Program-made: the position numbers and the translations under genes
The notes under the pieces: generated by a model
Databases searched by the model: none
Told to the model about the DNA's origin: nothing
The model's input: the letters and a program-made list of their open reading frames with translations, nothing else
Shown here: positions 16,165 through 58,949 of the stretch, piece by piece
How positions within the stretch are numbered: the first letter of the stretch is position 1
Layout of the letters: each line of letters opens with the position of its first letter
From: Squalus acanthias
Lineage: Eukaryota
NCBI GenBank assembly: GCA_030390025.1
Contig: CM059432.1
Span: 11,222,001 to 11,286,000, forward strand
Length of the DNA stretch: 64,000 nt
Reading direction: 5' to 3'

Positions 16165-19062
16165 GTGTCAGGAAGGGACAGAATGTATGGAGTAAAAGGG
16201 AAAGTGTTAAAAAAGGAAAAAGCAGGAACTAAGTGTCACAAAACATATTTGAAAGTTCTTTATCTGAATGCACGTAGCATTCGTAACAAAATGGACAAGT
16301 TAACGGCACAAATAACTACGTATGGGTATGATCTTGTGGCCATTACAGAAACATGACTGCAGGGTGACAACGACTGGGAATTAAATATGCCAGGGTATTT
16401 AACAATCAGGAAGGACAGGCAGGAAGGAAGGGGAGGTGGGGTGGCTATGTTAATAAAGGAAGGAATCACTGTAATACAGAGAAATGATATTGGGTCAAAG
16501 GATCAGAATAATGAAACAGTTTGGGTGGAGATGAGGAATAATAAGGGGGAAAAAACACTAGTGGGAGTAGTGTATAGGCCTCCTAATAGTTGCAACTCTG
16601 CTGGAAGAAGTATTAATCAGGAAATAGTTGGGGCATATAATAAGGGAACAGCTATAATTATGGGGGATTTTAACTATCATATTAACTGGACAAATCAAAT
16701 TGGGCAGGGCAGCCTTGAGGAAGAGTTTATTGAGTGTATTAGGGATGGATTTCTTGAGCAGTATGTAACTGATCCTACAAGGGGGCAAGCAACCTTGGAC
16801 CTGGTCCTGTGTAATGAGTCAGGATTCATTAATAATGTCCTAGTTAAGGATCCCCTTGGAATGAGTGACCATAACATGGTTGAATTCCATATCCAATTAG
16901 AGGGTGAGAAGGTTGGTTCTCAAACAAGCGTACTGAGCTTGAATAAAGGAGACTATGATGGTATGAGAGCGGAATTGATTAAAGTGGACTGGGAAAATAG
17001 ATTAAAGGGTAAGACGGTACATGAGCAGTGGTGTTCATTTAAGGAGCTATTTTACAACTTTCAAAAAATATATATTCCACTGAGGAAAAAAGGGTGGAAA
17101 AGAAATGACAGCCATCCGTGGCTAAGTAAAGAAATTAAGGATAGTATCCGACTAAAAACAAGGACATATAAGGTAGCCAAACTTAGTGGGAGGATAGAAG
17201 ATTGGGAAGTCTTCAAAAGACAGCAAAAAGTAACTGAAGGATTGATTAAGAAAGGGAAGATAGATTATGAAAATAAATTAGCAAAAAATATAAAAACAGA
17301 TAGCAAGAGTTTCTATAGTTATATAAAAAGAAAAAGGGCGGCTGAGGCAAACGTAGGTCCCTTAGAGGATGAGACCGGGAAATTAATGGTGGGAAACATG
17401 GAGATGGCAAAAATGCTGAACAAATATTTTGTTTCAGTCTTTACGGTAGAGGACACTAAGAATATCCCAACACTGGACAAACAGGGGGCTCTGGGGGGGG
17501 GGGGGAGGAGCTAAATATGATTAAAATCACTGAGGAATTAGTACTCAGTAAAATAATGGGACTCAAGGCGGATAAATCCCCTGGACCTGATGGCTTACAT
17601 CCTAGGGTCTTGAGGGAAGTGGCAGTAGGGATTGTGGATGCTTTGGTAATAATTTTCCAAAATTCCCTGGACTCGGCAAAGGTCCCGGCAGATTAGAAAA
17701 CTGCTAATGTAACACCCTTATTTAAAAAGGGTAGTAGGCAGAAGGCTGGAAATTATAGACCAGTTAGCCTAACATCTGTGGTGGGTAAAATTTTGGAGTC
17801 TATTATTAAGGAGACAGTAACGGAACATTTAGATAAACATAATTTAATAGGACAAAGTCAGCATGGCTTTATGAAGGGGAAGTCATGTCTGACAAATTTG
17901 CTTGAGTTCTTTGAGGACATAACGTACAGGGTGGATAAAGGGGAACCAGTGGACGTAGTGTATTTAGACTTCCAGAAGGCATTCGACAAGGTGCCACATA
18001 AAAGATTATTGCTCAAGATAAAAAATCACTGGATTGGGGGGAATATTCTGGCATGGGTGGAGGATTGGTTATCTAACAGGAAGCAGAGAGTTGGGATAAA
18101 TGGTTCATTCTCGGACTGGCAACCAGTAGCCAGTGGTGTTCCGCAGGGGTCGGTGCTGGGTCCCCAACTCTTTACAATCTATATTAACGATTTGGAGGAG
18201 GGGACCGAGTGTAACATATCAAAGTTTGCAGATGATACAAAGATGGGAGGGAAAGTAGAGAGTGAGGAGGACATAAAAAACCTACAAGGGGATATAGACA
18301 GGCTGGGTGAGTGGGCGAAGATTTGGCAGATGCAATACAATATTGGAAAATGTGAGGTTATGCACTTTGGCAGGAAAAATCAGAGAGCAAGTTATTATCT
18401 TAATGGCGAGAAACTGGGAAGTACTGCAGTACAAAGGGATCTGGGGGTCCTAGTGCAAGAAAATCAAACAGTTAGTATGCAGGTGCAGCAGGTGATCAAG
18501 AAGGCCAACGGAATGTTGGCTTTTATTGCTAGGGGGATAGATTATAAAAACAGGGAGGTATTGCTGCAGTTATATAAGGTATTGGTGAGACCGCACCTGG
18601 AATACTGCATACAGTTTTGGTGTCCATACTTAAGAAAAGACATACTTGCTCTCGAGGCAGTACAAAGAAGGTTCACTCGGTTAATCCCGGGGATGAGGGG
18701 GTGGACATATGAGGAGAGGTTGAGTAGATTGGGACTCTGCTCATTGGAGTTCAGAAAAATGAGAGGCGATCTTATTGAAACATAAGATTGTGAAGGGGCT
18801 TGATCGGGTGGATGCGGTAAGGATGTTCCCAAGGATGGGTGAAACTAGAACTAGGGGGCATAATCTTAGAATAAGGGGCTGCTCTTTCAAAACTGAGATG
18901 AGGAGAAACTTCTTCACTCAGAGGGTAGTAGGTCTGTGGAATTTACTGCCCCAGGAAGCTGTGGAAGCTACATCATTAAATAAATTTAAAACAGAAATAG
19001 ACAGTTTCCTAGAAGTAAAGGGAATTAGGGGTTACGGGGAGTGGGCAGGAAATTGGACATGA
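16165..19062 (+). pseudogene. CR1 ORF2 (APE endonuclease plus RT), inactivated
   Basis: YLNARS, ITET*, YRPP, GDFN, SDH, QGSVLGP, FADD; premature stops at ~16354 and ~17694; frameshifts at the poly-G (~17495) and ~18783. Confidence 0.9.
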
Positions 19063-19538: not shown

Positions 19539-19679
19539 AGTGCAAATTCCACTGCACCAATGGCAACTGTTTGAAATTTGGAAACCTGATTTGCAACCAA
19601 CTAAATGACTGTGGAGATAACAGTGATGAAGAAAACTGCCCGCTAGTAACTGAGCACCCACCTCCAACAATCTTTAACT
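19539..19679 (+). CDS. LDLRAD4: LDLRAD4 (C18orf1) internal exon encoding the LDL-receptor class A domain
   Basis: Acceptor ctcttttacag| and donor |gtaagt; 141 nt, phase 1-1. Translation (E)[46 protein letters not shown](S) matches the human LDLRAD4 segment as I recall it ([48 protein letters not shown]). Not in the ORF track because it is under 60 aa. Confidence 0.93.
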
Positions 19680-32686: not shown

Positions 32687-33444
32687 GGCCCTGAAATTCG
32701 CCTCTCCGGCTTGCCGCGGGGGTAAGGATCGCGTGCGCACTTACCTACCGCGCCTGCCGTTGACCTCTGGGCCCACGGGAACTTCAGCTCCTGGACCTGC
32801 TCCAAGTGCCGGCGCGCAGTGCTTGCGTGTCCCAGGGGCGTAGTTAGTGCGATGCGTCCCCTGGGATCACGTGGGCCATGGCGAGCCAATGGCAGCAGAC
32901 CATCTTTCATTCATAGATTTGACAGGAAGACCTGTCAAATCTATGAATTGAAATCGGCCCCAAAAGAACAGCTAAACTGCAAATAAATTTTTTTTAAAAC
33001 CGTCACATTTATAAAATAACTATGTTAAATAAATTAACTACTTTAAACAAAAATTTAAATTTTTGAAAAAATTAAAATACTTTTTAACAGTGCTAAAAAT
33101 AAACTTACCTTTCTTTAAAGTATCTAAAAAAGATAAACCTGTTGAAAATTTTTTTAAATTATAATTAATTAACCACTTACCTTGTTGAAAACGGTCCTGC
33201 GCCTCCTTAAGCGTAGGTTCTTCAATACTTACCCTCCCGGAGAAACCTGAAAAAAACCCTAAGTTTGCTGCGTGCGCGCAGCCTCTTCCGCGCATGCGGT
33301 TCACCTCTGAACCGCTCCCTTCACGAGACCGGAAGTTCCGGTTTCCCGCGCATACACAGTGCATGCAGGAAACCGGCACTTCAGGAGGCCTTGCGGGTGA
33401 GTACACAGTGCGTACTCACCTGGCAAGTGCCGAAGTTTTGGCCC
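32687..33444. mobile_element. Harbinger-type MITE, copy A
   Basis: Imperfect TIRs ggccctgaaattcg / cgaagttttggccc; GC-rich arms with an AT-rich core; homologous in inverted orientation to 56877-57620. Confidence 0.75.
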
Positions 33445-34199
33445 ATTGTATCCTCTTACACATAGTTGTCTCTGCTGATTCATTGAGAGCAGTGTTCTGA
33501 TTTATAATTGTATAACTGCATAAGACACTGCTGCATTATCGGTAGAATTTGTTCAGTACTGTATCCAATTGCCTGGTTTGATTTTTGTATTTGATTTGTG
33601 CTGGGGCCAGCTGGTGGCCAAGATAACTGTAAAAGCTAGTAAAAATATAGGAATTCTTTTTAATGCTGTCAGTAACTTCAGGGATCTGCAAAGTTCTATG
33701 TTGTTCCAGTGACAACATTGTAGCTTGGTGTGGCAAGCTGCAGAGAAAACACGGCTCTTAATCTTAATCCTAGACTCAGTGGAGTCTAAACATATGCTCT
33801 CGTGGACTTGAGGATCCATGCCTTTTCTCCAACATTGAACAGATGTGACTTGGAGAGTCATTTCTCTCCAAGACTTGTTAATCCAGATATTCATGTTTAT
33901 AAAGGAACACAACAGCTGATGTGCCTTTGCTTCAACATTGTACAAAGAATATCAGTGGTGAAACTTTCCACATTGCCTGTTCTGCCGATAGAATTTTCTT
34001 CTCGGCAGTGAAGTTGCTTGAAAAACTCGCCCCTTGTACTTAGAAGTTTAGAAGCAAGTAAGTGTTGTTGGAACATATGCTAAACCTTTGAAAATCCATT
34101 GACAATTTCTCCAAGCTTTTCTGCCTCTAACTACCAGGGTTAGTTTTGTAAAACCTCTGTCTTTGTGACGGTTATCTTCATCTGCCCCATATCACTAGA

Positions 34200-48389: not shown

Positions 48390-50070
48390 TGAACCTTCTT
48401 TGTACTGCCTCGAGAGCAAGTATGTCTTTTCTTAAGTATGGACACCAAAACTGTATGCAGTATTCCAGGTGCGGTCTCACCAATACCTTATATAACTGCA
48501 GCAATACCTCCCTGTTTTTATAATCTATCCCCCTAGCAATAAAAGCCAACATTCCGTTGGCCTTCTTGATCACCTGCTGCACCTGCATACTAACTGTTTG
48601 ATTTTCTTGCACTAGGACCCCCAGATCCCTTTGTACTGCAGTACTTCCAGTTTCTCGCCATTAAGATAATAACTTGCTCTCTGATTTTTCCTGCCAAAGT
48701 GCATAACCTCACATTTTCCAATATTGTATTGCATCTGCCAAATCTTCGCCCACTCACCCAGCCTGTCTATATCCCCTTGTAGGTTTTTTATGTCCTCCTC
48801 ACTTTCTACTTTCCCTCCCATCTTTGTATCATCTGCAAACTTTGATATGTTACACTCGGTCCCCTCCTCCAAATCGTTAATATAGATTGTAAAGAGTTGG
48901 GGACCCAGCACCGACCCCTGCGGAACACCACTGGCTACTGGTTGCCAGTCCGAGAATGAACCATTTATCCCAACTCTCTGCTTCCTGTTAGATAACCAAT
49001 CCTCCACCCATGCCAGAATATTCCCCCCAATCCAGTGATTTTTTATCTTGAGCAATAATCTTTTATGTGGCACCTTGTCGAATGCCTTCTGGAAGTCTAA
49101 ATACACTACGTCCACTGGTTCCCCTTTATCCACCCTGTACGTTATGTCCTCAAAGAACTCAAGCAAATTTGTCAGACATGACTTCCCCTTCATAAAGCCA
49201 TGCTGACTTTGTCCTATTAAATTATGTTTATCTAAATGTTCCGTTACTGTCTCCTTAATAATAGACTCCAAAATTTTACCCACCACAGATGTTAGGCTAA
49301 CTGGTCTATAATTTCCAGCCTTCTGCCTACTACCCTTTTTAAATAAGGGTGTTACATTAGCAGTTTTCTAATCTGCCGGGACCTTTGCCGAGTCCAGGGA
49401 ATTTTGGAAAATTATTACCAAAGCATCCACAATCCCTACTGCCACTTCCCTCAAGACCCTAGGATGTAAGCCATCAGGTCCAGGGGATTTATCCGCCTTG
49501 AGTCCCATTATTTTACTGAGTACTAATTCCTCAGTGATTTTAATCATATTTAGCTCCTCCCCCCCCCCCCCCAGAGCCCCCTGTTTGTCCAGTGTTGGAT
49601 ATTCTTAGTGTCCTCTACCGTAAAGACTGAAACAAAATATTTGTTCAGCATTTTTGCCATCTCCATGTTTCCCACCATTAATTTCCCGGTCTCATCCTCT
49701 AAGGGACCTACGTTTGCCTCAGCCGCCCTTTTTCTTTTTATATAACTATAGAAACTCTTGCTATCTGTTTTTATATTTTTTGCTAATTTATTTTCATAAT
49801 CTATCTTCCCTTTCTTAATCAATCCTTCAGTTACTTTTTGCTGTCTTTTGAAGACTTCCCAATCTTCTATCCTCCCACTAAGTTTGGCTACCTTATATGT
49901 CCTTGTTTTTAGTCGGATACTATCCTTAATTTCTTTACTTAGCCACGGATGGCTGTCATTTCTTTTCCACCCTTTTTTCCTCAGTGGAATATATATTTTT
50001 TGAAAGTTGTAAAATAACTCCTTAAATGAACACCACTGCTCATGTACCGTCTTACCCTTTAATCTATTTT

Positions 50071-50170
50071 AGAAACATAGAAAATAGGTACAGGAGTAGA
50101 CCATTCGGTCCTTCGAGCCTGCACCGCCATTCAATGCGTTCATGGCTGAACATGCTACCTCAGTACCCCA
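50071..50170 (-). mobile_element. 100-bp CR1 tail insertion inside CR1 copy 2
   Basis: Absent from copy 1 (empty site aatctattttcccagtcc); tt duplicated. Confidence 0.85.
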
Positions 50171-53100
50171 TTCCCAGTCCACTTTAATCAATTCCGCTCT
50201 CATACCATCATAGTTTCCTTTATTCAAGCTCATTACGCTTGTTTGAGAACCAACCTTCTCACCCTCTAATTGGATATGGAATTCAACCATGTTATGGTCA
50301 CTCATTCCAAGGGGATCCTTAACTAGGACATTATTAATGAATCCTGACTCATTACACAGGACCAGGTCCAAGGTTGCTTGCCCCCTTGTAGGATCAGTTA
50401 CATACTGCTCAAGAAATCCATCCCTAATACACTCAATAAACTCTTCCTCAAGGCTGCCCTGCCCAATTTGATTTGTCCAGTTAATATGATAGTTAAAATC
50501 CCCCATAATTATAGCTGTTCCCTTATTACATGCCCCAACTATTTCCTGATTAATACTTCTTCCAGCAGAGTTGCAACTATTAGGAGGCCTATATACTACT
50601 CCCACTAGTGTTTTTTTTCCCCTTATTATTCCTTATCTCCACCCAAACTGTTTCATTATCCTGATCCTTTGACCCAATATCATTTCTCTGTATTACAGTG
50701 ATTCCTTCCTTTATTAACATAGCCACCCCACCTCCCCTTCCTTCCTGCCTGTCCTTCCTGATTGTTAAATACCCTGGCATATTTAATTCCCAGTCGTTGT
50801 CACCCTGCAGTCATGTTTCTGTAATGGCCACAAGATCATACCCATACGTAGTTATTTGTGCCGTTAACTTGTCCATTTTGTTACGAATGCTACGTGCATT
50901 CAGATAAAGAACTTTCAAATATGTTTTGTGACACTTAGTTCCTGCTTTTTCCTTTTTTAACACTTTCCCTTTTACTCCATACATTCTGTCCCTTCCTGAC
51001 ACGCTTTCCTCTGTCTCCCTGCTCAGGTGCCCATTCTTCCAGCAGAGTTGCAACTATTAGGAGGCCTATATACTACTCCCACTAGTGTTTTTTCAGAGAC
51101 GGGAGAATTTATAATGTGGAATGAGGAAATGGCGGAGAAATTAAATAAATACTTTATTTCTGTCTTCACGGAGAAAGACACAAAAAACCTCCCAGAAATA
51201 CGAGAAAACCAAGGGTGTGGTGAGAATGAGGAACTTAAAGAAATTACTATTAGTAATAAAACAGTACTAGCAAAATTAATGGGTCTAAAAGTCGATAAAT
51301 CCCAATGACCATCGGATGACCTACATCCTAGGGTTTTGAAAGAGGTGGCCATTGGGATAGTGGGAACATTGGTTGTCATCTTCCAAAATTCTATAGATTC
51401 TGGAACGGTTCCTGCAGAAATGTAACCCCGCTATTTAAGAAAGGAGGGAGAGAGAAAACGGTGAACTACAGACCTGTTAGCCTCACATCAGTAGTTGGGA
51501 AAATGCTGGAATCTATTATGAAGGATGCAATAACTGGGCACTTAGAAACTAATAGTAAGATTGGGCAGAGTCGACATGGTTTTATGAAAGGGAAATCCTG
51601 TTTAACAAACCTATTGGAGTTCTTTGAGGATGTAACTAGTGGAGTAGACAAAGGGGAACCGGTAGATGTGTTGTATTTGGATTTTCAGAAGGCCTTCGAT
51701 AAGGTCCCACACAAGAGGTTGGTGAACAAAATTAGGGCACATGGAATTGGGGGTAATATGCTAGCATGGATTGAGAATTGGTTAACAGACAGAAAACAAA
51801 GAGTAGGGATAAATGGGTCTTTTTCAGGTTGGCAGGCTGTGACTAGTGGGGTACCGCAAGGATCAGTGCTTGGGCCCCAGCTATTCACAATCTATATCAA
51901 TGATTTGGATGAGGGGACTAAATGTAACATTTCCAAATTTGCTGATGATACAAAGCTAGGTGGCAGTGTCAGTTGTGAAGAGGATGTGAAGAGGCTTCAA
52001 GGGGATCTCAACAGGCTCAGTGAGTGGGCGAGAACATGGCAGATGGAGTATAATGTGGATAAATGTGAAGTTATTCACTTTGGTCGAAAAAACAGAAAGG
52101 CAGAGTATTTCCTAAATGGTGAAAGATTGGGGAATGCAGATGCTCAAAGGGACCTGGGCGTCCTTGTACATGAGTCACAAAGTGAATGTGCAGGTGCAGC
52201 AAGCCATGAGGAAGGCAAATGGTATGCTGGCCTTCATTACAAGAGGATTTGAGTACAGGAGTAAAGATGTCTTACTCCAATTATATAGGGCCTTGGTGAG
52301 ACCACACCTGGAGTACTGTGTACAATTTTGGTCTCCTTACCTAAGGAAGGATATACTTGCCATAGAGGGAGTTTAACGAAGGTTCACGAGATTGATTCCT
52401 GGGATGGCGGGACTGTCGTATGAGAAGAGATTGAGTAAACTAGGCCTGTATTCTCTTGAATTCAGAAGAATGAGAGGGGATCTCATTGAAGCATACAAAA
52501 TTATTACAGGGCTTTATAGGGTGGATGCTGGGAGAATGTTTCCATTGGCTGGGGAGTCGAGAACCAGGGGCCACAGCCTCAGGATAAAGGGTAGGCCATT
52601 CAGGACTGAGATGAGAAGACATTTCTTCACACAGAGGGTGGTGAATCTTTGGAATTCTCTACCCGAGAGGGCTGTGGAGGCTCAGTCATTGGGTATATTC
52701 AAAACAGAAGTCGATAGATTTCTGACTTGTAAGGGCATCAAGGGATATGGCGATAGGGCTGGTGAATGGAGTTGAGGCAGAAGATCAGCCATGATCTCAT
52801 TGAATGGCGGAGCAGACTCGAAGGGCCGAATGGCCTACTCCTGCTCCTATTTCTTATGTTCTTCTGTTTCTGGTGAATTGCGACCCCATGGATGTTAATG
52901 TTGGGGGATTGATGGTAATGCCATTTAATGTCAAGGGGTGGTCTGCTTAATTATCTGGGGCAATGTGAATGGAACTGAACACTCTTCAAGCATCAGCGAA
53001 CAGCCCTACTTCTGACTTTATGATGGAGGGAAGGTCTTTGAAGCAGCTGAAGATAGTTGGGCCTAGGATGCTGCCCTGAGGAACTGCTGCAGTGATGTCC

Positions 53101-54622: not shown

Positions 54623-54762
54623 ATAAGAACATAAGAAGAAGGAATAGGCCATTTGGCCCTTAGAGCCTGCTCCACCATTCAGTTAGATCATGGCTGATCT
54701 TTGACCTCAACTCCATTTCCCGCACCATCCCCATATCCCTTGATTCCCTTAATATCCAAAAT
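54623..54762 (-). mobile_element. CR1 tail fragment
   Basis: ataagaacataagaag...gcctgctccaccattc. Confidence 0.8.
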
Positions 54763-54790
54763 TTTTTTTAAAAGTACCTGCAACCACTTC

Positions 54791-56546
54791 TGCCGTCAGC
54801 TTCCTGTGCCATCGATACCATTGGGGGAACAATAATGTCTGTTTATGAAAGTAAATTGGAGGGTGAGGACTTTTGTTGCTCGTATTGTTCACAAGAGACT
54901 TGAATTTGGTTCTGAGGAAACTAACATCAGAGCCTTTCTAACTTCTGTAGAGTTTCGCAATTATCGCGATTCAAATAATATGAGAGAAGCAGGTTCAATT
55001 GAACATTTTTATTGAACGGAATGCTGTCTTGATAATAAAGGGTACAGAAGCCTGTAAAATGGCCGCCACGCATCGTGGCAGAAGCTTCCAGAGACACAGT
55101 GGGTAGACAAGATGGCGTCGAGTATACATTCAGTATGAGATCATACCTGGTACAAATTGAAAAGGCAGGATGCAACCCGTTTGCATCCTGGACAATAGCA
55201 ATGATATAAGTGCTTGAATCGTTTCATACGCACAGTAAGAATCATTGAACTGGGCCAGCGAAAGCCCATCCAGACACATCAATACACAAATACCCCCCCG
55301 GCTCAACAATGAGAGAGACATTGGCGGGTGATTAAGCCAGTATTCAGGGGGTCCCAAAACCAGTTGAGGAGACGATTCATACACATCCTGGCTGGCTCAA
55401 CAATGAAGAAGGCATTAACGGATAGTTGGCCAGTTTCAGGTGATACCGAAACCCGTTAAGAAGATAATCGCCCCATGCTGGGAGTTTTGGGCGCCAAAAT
55501 CACACAAAGGACAACATTTAGATTTGAGCGGGAGATAAGGCCGACAAAACAGTATAACTATAGGGGACAGATGTCCATCGGTCTCTTGGCTCTTGACTCT
55601 TCGCTCTTTTTTTCTCTTGCGCTGGTTCCTTCGGCGGGGCTGTGCTAGTCGGTTATTCGAGTGTTGGGTGGAGTTCAATCGGAACGAGCTGCCTCGACAC
55701 GGCAGGCAGCAGGGTACACCATCCCGATCGTCGGTAAACGGTGTCCGGACCCAGAGGCCCGAGTGACGAGAAGAAAGACGAAAAGAAATTTCACGTGCCG
55801 CCACGGTCAGTAAACCCCGACCGCGCCCGAAGATAAAACGACAGAGTCCACCGGTTTTGAATTCTACAGACTACTTCATGATCCGGTCTGAATCCTACAG
55901 ACTACTTCATGACATCAGGGAGTCTGGCTTACCCTCCGGCTCTTTGAGCGGATAGCCTGAGCCATCCGCGACGAACTTTACCGGGGCCGTCTCAAGTGGA
56001 CCCATTCGCGGCAGCGAGAGTAAACAAGTCGGGTGCAGAAACCCTTACAGCCACGTGACAGTCAGGCGCTGCAGCGAAACGAGCCGAGAGCCTCATTTTA
56101 AATTTCCGAAGTGAGCCGAGTGGTGAGCATGTTTCCCGATCCTACAAATCCAGACGTAGTTTAGGTATATTAAAGGAGGGTGGTTTATAAGGTTAAGGTA
56201 TAATGTGTTCCCCCTTTTTCGATGTGTCGTGTGTTCCCCATTTCCATAGACCAAGTTTTATGAACGTGTGTATACTGGTACTCTCTTTGATCTGCGTCTA
56301 TGACATGTATTTCATGATTTTCGACGCCATGCAATAAAGACATTCATTTCGTGCTATTCAACCAGGTCTATTTGAGTCTTTTCTCTGCATTACTGCTCCT
56401 TGCATCTAAGTCCAGGTGTCAGAACCGTAAGGGCGAGTGGGTCGAACCACTCACAGGTGCTTATTGCAAAAGTCTGGCCGGAGACCAGAGCAAGCAATAG
56501 TATAGGCAACGAAAGCCTCACCTCGCACCAGTCCGTGACCCTTACA
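54791..56546 (+). mobile_element. 1,756-bp solo LTR of an endogenous retrovirus (spuma/foamy-like proportions)
   Basis: TG...CA termini; CTTC TSD at 54787-54790 and 56547-56550; TATA-like motifs at ~56165-56205; AATAAA at 56333; 31-bp tandem repeat at 55851-55912; visibly more CpG-rich than the flanks. Confidence 0.8.
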
Positions 56547-56876
56547 CTTCAGCGAAGTCTTTTTTGCCCACCTTGAGTTACTTCCGTTGAAAAATTATCT
56601 CTTAATTAATGTGCATGTGGCGCAGGACTTTTATGTAGGTAAAAATAGAAGTTGCATTTATACAGCACTTTATCATGTTCTCAGGATGTCCTAGCATTTT
56701 GCACTTGTTAAAGTGTAATCATTGGTGTTATGTTGTCAAAGACTAGGACGAAGTTAGTTTTCTTTGGTATAATTCACTGTGGTCTGTATTTGGAGAATTT
56801 TTACAGTATGAGATTTCTTGTAAGAAGGATCATTATAAGTAGGTGTCTTAATCCTGCTGGGTATTTTCCAGGTATT

Positions 56877-57620
56877 GGGCCGAAAATTGATCCCGGGACG
56901 CGAGAGTACGCACTGCATACTCTCGCGTATTCCCACTCCAATTGCCGGTTTTCTGCATGCCCTGCGCATGCGCTGAAAACCGGCAATTGCTCTTCCGAAA
57001 AGGGGGCGGGGCCTGGCTGCATCGCGTGCGCGCTACAGGCTGCGCGCACGCTGTGCACTTCATGCTTTGGACGCGCAGGTAAGTAGGGAAGATTTTGGAA
57101 ATGTAAAAAGGAGGAGTAAGACCCGCTTTTAAGAAGGTAAGTAGTGAATTAAGTATTTTTTTGAATTTTTTTTTACAGGTATATCTTTTTTAGAGACTTT
57201 AAAGACAGGTAAGTTTATTTTTATAACTTTTTAAAAGATTTTAAATTTTTTCAAAAATTTAATTTTTTATTTAAAATGGTTAATTTAATTAACTATACTT
57301 ATTTTATTAATGTGATGGTTTTTTTTTTAAATTTAATTGAGGTTTAGCTGTTATTTTGGGGGGGTGTAAGATTCATAAGTCTCACAGCCATGCTGTGAGA
57401 CTTATGAATGGAAGATGGTGTGCTGCCATTGGCTCTAACTGAGTCACGTGATCCCACAGCTCGCACGAATTAACTACGCCGCTGGGATACGCAAGCCCAG
57501 CACAGCTGATGTCTGGAACATCAATTTCGTGCGAGCTGGATCAGAAAAAGCATAAGCGAGGTGAGACATCGCGGGGAAGGCTTACCCCCGCGGGAACAGA
57601 GCGAGATCAATTTCTGGGCC
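56877..57620. mobile_element. Harbinger-type MITE, copy B
   Basis: TIRs gggccgaaaattgatc / gatcaatttctgggcc with ATT on both flanks (3-bp TSD); inverted homolog of 32687-33444. Confidence 0.8.
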
Positions 57621-58949
57621 ATTATTATTTGAAAGCAGGTCACTACTAACGGGCAAAGTTCACCGATTCTAAAGGATATAATTAAAAAGTTTTCAAGTAT
57701 ATTCTGTAGATGAAAACAAGTGGTTTAGTTTGTGCAATAATCAGTAATCGATTTAAAGTTGAAGAGAAAAGGATTTTAGCAGTGACTAAGCTTTACTGTG
57801 TCATTGTATGAACAATTTACAGCCCGCAGGTCACCATAAGGGAATTGCTGAGTGTCTAGTCTACATGATCTATGGCTCTTAGTGATCAACTGCTTGTATT
57901 ATACAATCTCCCAAAGAGTGCAGCAATCATTAGCCCTTGGTTATTGACTACCACCGCCTCCTCTTGTGAAACTGTCTCTGAAAATGTTGTATGGAGCATT
58001 CTGTACATCAATCATCAACATTGCAAGGCCTCTGTTGAATTGCTGCAAAGTTAGTTATATTTTTTAGGTGAATGATGATTTAAAACAGCTGTACATCTTG
58101 TGAGCATGCTACTATGGTATATTTTCATCAGACTTAATATTTTCCCTTTGTCTTATAAACTGAGTAGTGCCCTCTGGTAGTAAAATGAATGAGTTTCTCT
58201 AGAAAAGCAAGATACTTGATGCAAAAGTACAAAAATAATTTTTCAACGTTGCAATTTTTTTTGTTGAAATTGTGTTTCAATTATTAAACCAGTTCTGGAG
58301 CATCAGAAGATTGGACTATAGATGTTGCATGTATCATGCAGAAACAATTCTGGGTTTTCTGCTCCTCCTCCTTGATATCTCATGATCATTAATGTATTTG
58401 ATGAGAAGCCAAAATGCTTTGGACATTTATTTAAAAAGCAGCGATGATGGTGTGAGTCAGCATACTAGTAAGAAGAAGAGTGATTGTTTATTATACAGGG
58501 ACAGTGCCGTGACACATGGCACCAGAATTTCCTCGCTAAAATGTAAGATTCTTTACAATACAAAAAAAAATGACTCTGTAATAGATCAGGCATTTCCATG
58601 CTAACCACACATCTATTTCTCTCCTTTTGCAAAATTTACGTATTGTAAAATAACAAATAACATCTTTAGTTTAAAAAAAACTACAATAAATCTATAGCTG
58701 ATTTAATGACCGAAATAGATCCAAAAAGAAATTAAAATAGAAAAAACATTGTACTTGTGCCTTTGAATCAAGTACCTTCTTTTCCTGAGAATACTATTCA
58801 TTTTATTAGAAGCACATTATTCATTTTTCTTCAAAATTTGATCATCATGAAAAAGGCTTTACTTAAGTGTCATCTTTACAAGCCATATAAAGAGTGTTTA
58901 TTTAAACTTGTAGTTGGGATAAATAGAAGTTCACTCATATTTCTTTGTG

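Follow-up and report, generated by a model that had tools for sequence, protein, structure and literature searches.

A 1,601-bp repeat at 54946-56546 of the window (the whole 64-kb stretch of DNA analysed), with TGTA...TACA ends between two copies of CTTC, is likely a solo LTR that is probably inert within an intron of LDLRAD4, a reading to which we assign a probability of about 80%. The initial annotation had described a solo LTR, 1,756 bp long and starting at 54791. Its LTR call stands, and membership in a multi-copy family is supported, once the left end is moved to 54946, where contig depth and joints place the start of the repeat; the element is therefore 1,601 bp and not 1,756 bp in length. 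The depth data come from contigs of four public runs (X1, X9, X6 and X7; organism A twice, B and C), which were placed on 54735-56890 at 80% likeness. Part of the stretch is contained in 20 runs from eight studies (organisms coded A-G plus one without a label), from which these four were taken, and six runs with a small share (organisms C, F and G) were left out of the depth analysis. The features discussed below are listed in Table 1.

Table 1. Coordinates of the LTR, its flanks, its internal features and the host exon in the window
Feature	Positions	Strand	Basis or remark
Single-copy host flank	54791..54945		X1 depth 5.94, other runs 0; CpG o/e 0.45
Left target-site duplication, CTTC	54942..54945	+	Sequence; depth step and joints at 54946
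Likely solo LTR, 1,601 bp, TGTA...TACA	54946..56546	+	Depth, joints and sequence; no Pfam family in four frames tested
YY1-like sites (55056, 55108)	55056..55117	+	Two seen, 0.06 expected
Degenerate direct repeat, period 94 bp	55300..55464	+	About 76% over 74 columns
Candidate promoter 1, TATA-like (non-canonical), LTR position 608	55553..55619	+	Putative start site
Two CACGTG E-boxes	55792..56057		Marginal excess, P ~0.04, uncorrected
Two-copy 31-bp duplication, 90%	55851..55912	+	Lies where the family has most indels
Candidate promoter 2, canonical TATA in some other copies	56254..56290	+	X7 loose end before 56278
AATAAA poly(A) signal, then T-rich tract	56333..56338	+	Sequence
Presumed U5, about 190 bp	56356..56546	+	Position of AATAAA
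Right target-site duplication, CTTC	56547..56550	+	Sequence; X1 record 8 spans the junction
LDLRAD4 LDLa-domain exon, 141 nt	19539..19679	+	PF00057, E 1.1e-7; AG before, GTAAGT after

The left end is marked by an abrupt change in depth. Over 54807-54878 the X1 depth was that of the right flank (5.94 against 5.67 and 4.5), and X9, X6 and X7 gave 0, while the bin that follows implies that depth rises from 5.94 to about 73,000 over the first five bases of the repeat (54946-54950). Entry exactly at 54946 from foreign flanks was seen in two X1 joints and in X7 record 17, in which 92 foreign letters precede the repeat. The terminal inverted match comprises four bases when counted from 54946 (TGTA/TACA) versus two from 54791. 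A start at 54791, giving the 1,756-bp element first reported, has a negligible chance of being right: CTTC followed by TG is present at 54787-54792, but the segment behind it has single-copy depth, the other copies begin at 54946, and about 0.7 such sites are expected by chance within the 3 kb from the right end, where there are two (54791 and 54946). The CTTC duplication itself was correctly recognized, with its left copy formed by the last four bases of the flank and not by those before 54791.

At the other side, the CA at 56546 followed by CTTC is present in the sequence as annotated. X1 record 8 (56518-56876, depth 5.67, no differences) runs across this junction, and the repetition of the right part extends to at least about 56534 in dispersed copies, which share the sharp left end. 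Depth over the last 12 bases was about 1,400 in X1 but almost nil in X9, X6 and X7; the evidence for the right end thus consists of the duplication, the inverted termini and record 8. Single-copy contigs from X1, records 1 and 8, span both junctions, indicating that sample S1 carries the insertion. As X1 may be the source sample of the window, its junction contigs are not independent of it.

The remaining properties are those of a solo LTR, whose conserved landmarks include TG-CA ends, AATAAA and a T-rich tract, according to the excerpted text of PMC2664473. The element has TG...CA ends, which form a short inverted match, a duplication within the 4-6 bp range, a poly(A) signal with a T-rich tract near its 3′ end, and no sign of interior genes in the frames tested. 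The four frames examined inside it, of 75-143 aa, matched no Pfam family, and six Rfam matches were all weak and far below the gathering level. No empty site occurred among the 15 joints listed, with the flanks uncovered in three of the four runs, and the 24 listed of 465 loose ends included none at an LTR terminus and no two-LTR copy, primer-binding site (PBS) or polypurine tract (PPT). The structure could have arisen in two steps, the insertion by an integrase of a two-LTR element, staggered by 4 bases, and the loss of its interior through recombination between the LTRs; the U3-R-U5 left behind would since have gathered differences from the bulk of its family amounting to at least 1.25%.

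The family is large. In X1, 4,368 contigs were placed out of 21.7 million records, and they fell into likeness classes of 1201, 1511, 1251 and 405 contigs from more than 99% down to less than 90% alike; X9, X6 and X7 contributed 394, 897 and 760 contigs, respectively. The LTR family is accordingly present in at least three organisms. Summed contig depth, which is not a copy number, was 875-71,359 times the single-copy depth across all 22 interior bins. This excess, together with the presence in at least three organisms, suggests copies in the thousands, as an order of magnitude only, and the 64-kb window holds no second one. Exact searches with a 19-mer from the LTR 3′ end gave no match in metagenome and viral contigs, and an 18-mer from U5 gave none in viral contigs and 22 metagenome loci, all of them chance matches of 18-23 bases. 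No description of the family was found in the literature searched, Repbase and Dfam lying outside that search. The LTR is an ordinary kind of repeat, belonging to an elasmobranch family that is abundant and probably uncatalogued.

Variation among the copies is unevenly distributed. The most variable part of the family is 55837-56005, and other copies in several runs skip 45-51 bases at the 31-bp duplication (joints from 55837) and 71-74 bases at 55930-56005. Two bins, 55023-55094 and 56391-56462, reached summed X1 depths of 200,000 and 414,000, far above the rest of the LTR, and are possibly segments common to further subfamilies.

The copy had also been called relatively young. This holds against the CR1 and L2 debris around it, because its CpGs are kept (o/e 0.92 in the element, compared with 0.37 in the rest of the window, in agreement with the retained CpGs of the annotation), but a recent insertion is not demonstrated. 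In 20 of the 40 listed rows of differences (285 in total), at least 80% of the X1 depth differs from this copy, which gives a divergence from the bulk of that depth of at least 1.25% (at least 20 sites). CpG decay accounts for only 3 of these 20 near-fixed differences. The shares of words found in organisms A, B and C were 0.55, 0.36 and 0.29, and would correspond to 2-4%. With assumed rates of 0.5e-9 and 2.2e-10, taken from excerpts of PMC10699275 and PMC4422223, respectively, 1.25% would equal about 25-57 million years if the differences postdate the insertion, a figure that subfamily structure could inflate.

Most of the internal motifs listed by the initial annotation were found where it had placed them. 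The YY1-like CAAGATGGCG at 55108 is accompanied by a second YY1-like site at 55056, and none of 500 dinucleotide shuffles reached two. Both CACGTG motifs, at 55792 and 56052, are present against 0.33 expected. The two copies of the 31-bp tandem repeat are likewise there, although Tandem Repeats Finder did not report the pair at a score of 50. The 94-bp-period repeat has a weaker third unit upstream and, judged by its position, may be enhancer-like. The AATAAA is present at 56333 as annotated and would direct cleavage near 56350-56355; the RNA fold of 56280-56546 was not unusual (z -0.66). The ratio of X9 to X1 depth, 0.012-0.045, falls to 0.002-0.005 past 56319 and is just as low upstream of 55095. 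That X9 is RNA is a guess, and contig depth cannot rank parts of the LTR, so that no inference was drawn from this ratio.

The promoter layout probably differs from the one first proposed, in which TATA-like motifs lay about 1.4 kb into the element. Those motifs are non-canonical and not enriched: the element contains no TATAWAW match and three looser ones, versus 1.3 expected (P 0.14). Moreover, position 56169, inside the motif at 56166, carries another letter in 18%, 100%, 86% and 42% of the depth in X1, X9, X6 and X7, respectively. Two other candidates emerged. The TATA-like motif at 55553 comes after the two YY1-like sites and the 94-bp-period repeat, has five CTCTT units 30 nt downstream, and stands at the beginning of a CpG-rich stretch (o/e 1.1 over 55553-56355); if used, it would give a U3 of about 635 nt and a CpG-rich R of about 770 nt reaching to about 56355. 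The second candidate is a canonical TATA missing from this copy, known from an X7 loose end before 56278 that comprises three contigs, with the motif resting on the longest; its matching place here is 56254-56277, and it would give a U3 of about 1.33 kb and an R of about 70 nt. From the arrangement of motifs, we consider the early motif with a long R the likelier promoter in this copy. No strong splice donor precedes the AATAAA, the best sites (56123 and 56266) scoring 7.5 of 11 on a crude U1-match scale, which is the background level of 1.5 per kb in the window.

As to the parent element, a foamy-like retrovirus (clade Tu) is the tentative first choice among single classes, followed by snakehead-/loki-like and epsilon-like retroviruses on equal terms and then by Gypsy, with a slim chance for any other class. 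The annotation rightly warned that length and duplication cannot settle the class. Retroviruses of cartilaginous fishes are scattered over the retroviral phylogeny (PMC6001957), and spuma-, epsilon- and snakehead-like lineages all occur among chondrichthyan ERVs (PMC4422223, PMC10699275), as far as the excerpts of these reports go. Short LTR motifs, four and then two, were absent as exact text from the portions at hand of the supplements of published chondrichthyan ERVs.

Taken together, the retroviruses outside the foamy-like group, namely epsilon-like (ERV1, clade Mu), snakehead-like (clade Huo) or loki/BHIKHARI-like, come close to even odds. Class I and II LTRs typically have YY1 sites and direct repeats in their U3, and both lie in the presumed U3 of this element. 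In epsilon-like ERV1 elements a canonical TATA goes with an R of less than about 100 nt, and the canonical TATA that some copies carry about 75 nt before the AATAAA would give a short R, although this late TATA rests on few contigs from one run. A 4-nt duplication is described for gamma- and epsilon-like viruses in the excerpts of PMC5210030 and PMC4255032, as with the AGAT of an epsilon-like coelacanth ERV1 (PMC4255032), and the elephant-shark ERVs partly described in PMC4422223 are epsilon- and snakehead-like. Length fits less well: the coelacanth LTRs reported in that excerpt are shorter (444-551 nt), CoeERV1-1 being also a TG...CA solo repeat with a 4-bp duplication but only 462 nt long (PMC4255032), and the LTR on CmiERV scaffold 2 measures about 830 nt by eye (PMC4422223). 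In contrast, the solo LTRs of the zebrafish lokiretrovirus BHIKHARI-1 also exceed 1 kb and combine TG...CA ends, a short duplication and no interior, but with 196 insertions, 119 of them solo, in the published account as excerpted (PMC12067270), that family is far less abundant than the one here.

A foamy-like parent is possible, at well below even odds. The presumed U5 is similar in size to that of prototype and simian foamy viruses. The length range and the 4-nt duplication are also alike in the excerpted description of these viruses (PMC3694450), but the 4-nt duplication, which foamy viruses and gammaretroviruses generate (PMC5210030, in part) and is expected of foamy-like ERVs, does not single out this class because it is common to gamma- and epsilon-like retroviruses. 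The foamy-like architecture claimed for the element was not established when the simian layout was tested. According to the same description (PMC3694450), the R of PFV measures 193 nt and contains the major donor, with AATAAA at +168; neither a conserved TATA about 200 nt before the AATAAA nor a strong donor was found in our element, in which TATAWAW is lacking, the 56166 motif varies and donors stay at background. Further marks of foamy viruses and foamy-like ERVs, a PBS for tRNA-Lys (or Asn, Thr) and GGG+TG at the PPT junction, are given in the excerpt of PMC5210030.

The foamy-like reading takes the teleost form, a 1.5-1.6 kb LTR with an early TATA and a long R-U5. The LTRs of AciFLERV and AliFLERV measure 1,498 and 1,634 nt, and the AciFLERV duplications are listed as 4 bp, in the available part of PMC5512871. 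By eye, TATAAAA lies at about 662 (also 449) in AciFLERV and about 618 in AliFLERV, compared with LTR position 608 here, and the AciFLERV motif at about 662 is followed by a CT-rich tract much as in our element. The likeness in LTR length (1.5-1.63 kb), 4-nt duplication and TATA some 620-660 nt in is by description only (PMC5512871, PMC5210030), the motif at 608 is non-canonical, and a TATA with a CT tract is generic. The poly(A) signal is placed differently, since in AciFLERV some 490 nt separate the AATAAA from the end, versus 214 in our element, and the two teleost families comprise 9 and 23 elements. The foamy-like reading is also opposed by the lack of a strong donor ahead of the AATAAA and by the shorter LTRs of the catshark spuma ERV (866-869 nt; PMC10699275) and of the newt (960-974 nt; PMC5512871), as stated in excerpts. 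Within the same host class, the LTRs of CmiERV and ERV-Spuma.0-Sca are both shorter than this one, at about 830-870 nt (PMC4422223, PMC10699275, each in part).

A Ty3/Gypsy retrotransposon with long LTRs is an unlikely parent. Ends of the TGT...ACA type, 4-bp duplications and very high copy numbers occur in animal Gypsy clades, and no result here sets this class apart from the others, but the LTRs of most zebrafish LTR elements are close to 500 bp in the excerpted survey of PMC8672886.

The host gene was identified by its LDLa-domain exon, which is 94-96% identical to ray and shark LDLRAD4. A tblastn search with four full-length proteins returned only this exon as a strong match, and the window contains no other LDLRAD4 coding exon. 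The sense orientation in an LDLRAD4 intron given by the annotation agrees with these data: since the exon is on the + strand and the LTR is 3′ of it, the LTR lies in sense 35 kb into the following intron, provided that the gene extends past the window as it does in relatives. The suggested role as an internal promoter or a premature poly(A) site is unsupported. Between the LDLa exon and the LTR there are 24 other + strand AATAAA motifs (0.72 per kb), so one more is unremarkable, and LDLa-less isoforms have a first exon of their own. A conserved alternative first coding exon leading to LDLa-less LDLRAD4 was found in 8 of the 23 elasmobranch N-termini examined, from rays and sharks (P0048, P0051, P0060, P0062-P0064, P0066 and P0071), all isoforms being database gene models, and it is absent from the LTR and from the window. 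These results indicate that the LDLa-less isoform predates the insertion and does not need it.

It is very unlikely that the copy has been co-opted or is disruptive, starting an LDLa-less LDLRAD4 transcript or ending transcripts early. Its sense orientation, CpG-rich middle, intact AATAAA with T-rich tract and donor-like site at 56457 (8.5 of 11) are compatible with such a role, and an unmethylated, active copy could likewise explain why CpGs are retained (o/e 1.1 in the middle). In contrast, the host first exon for LDLa-less isoforms is conserved in rays and sharks, the intron offers the other AATAAA motifs upstream, the copy has no canonical TATA, and the LTR is remote from exons, 35 kb downstream of the one for LDLa and separated by more than 7 kb from any that follows. 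LDLRAD4 is a TGF-beta regulator; if the copy drove one of its isoforms, this would be a rare LTR co-option in such a shark gene, and nothing supports it now.

Two other repeats were observed in the window. A CpG- and hairpin-rich repeat of about 750 bp occurs in two copies, at 56873-57624 and at about 32700-33445 (- strand), which are 74-79% identical over their aligned parts and have terminal inverted repeats of 23 nt (78%). Their hairpins at 57371-57409 and 32909-32948 are both paired at 18 of 18 positions while the arms differ at about 5 of 18; these differences are compensated changes. The AT-rich middle contains several donor-like AG+GTAAG motifs. The repeat may be MITE-like, and selection on structure and palindrome repair may both fit the hairpins. 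Near-identical CR1-like ORF2 pieces lie in opposite orientations in the same intron (16357-18785 and 48612-50632), which suggests a recent LINE subfamily or a local duplication.

Returning to the solo LTR, its sequence can serve well as a probe in the search for its parent. If that parent is foamy-like, thousands of copies in several cartilaginous fishes would inform both early foamy-virus LTR design and host co-divergence. It is rather unlikely that the LTR marks an undescribed foamy-like retrovirus with thousands of copies in several shark or ray species and a 1.6-kb LTR of the teleost type, having an early TATA and a CpG-rich R of about 770 nt; if it does, the 'long U3, short R' of simian viruses would be shown not to be the ancestral design of the foamy LTR.
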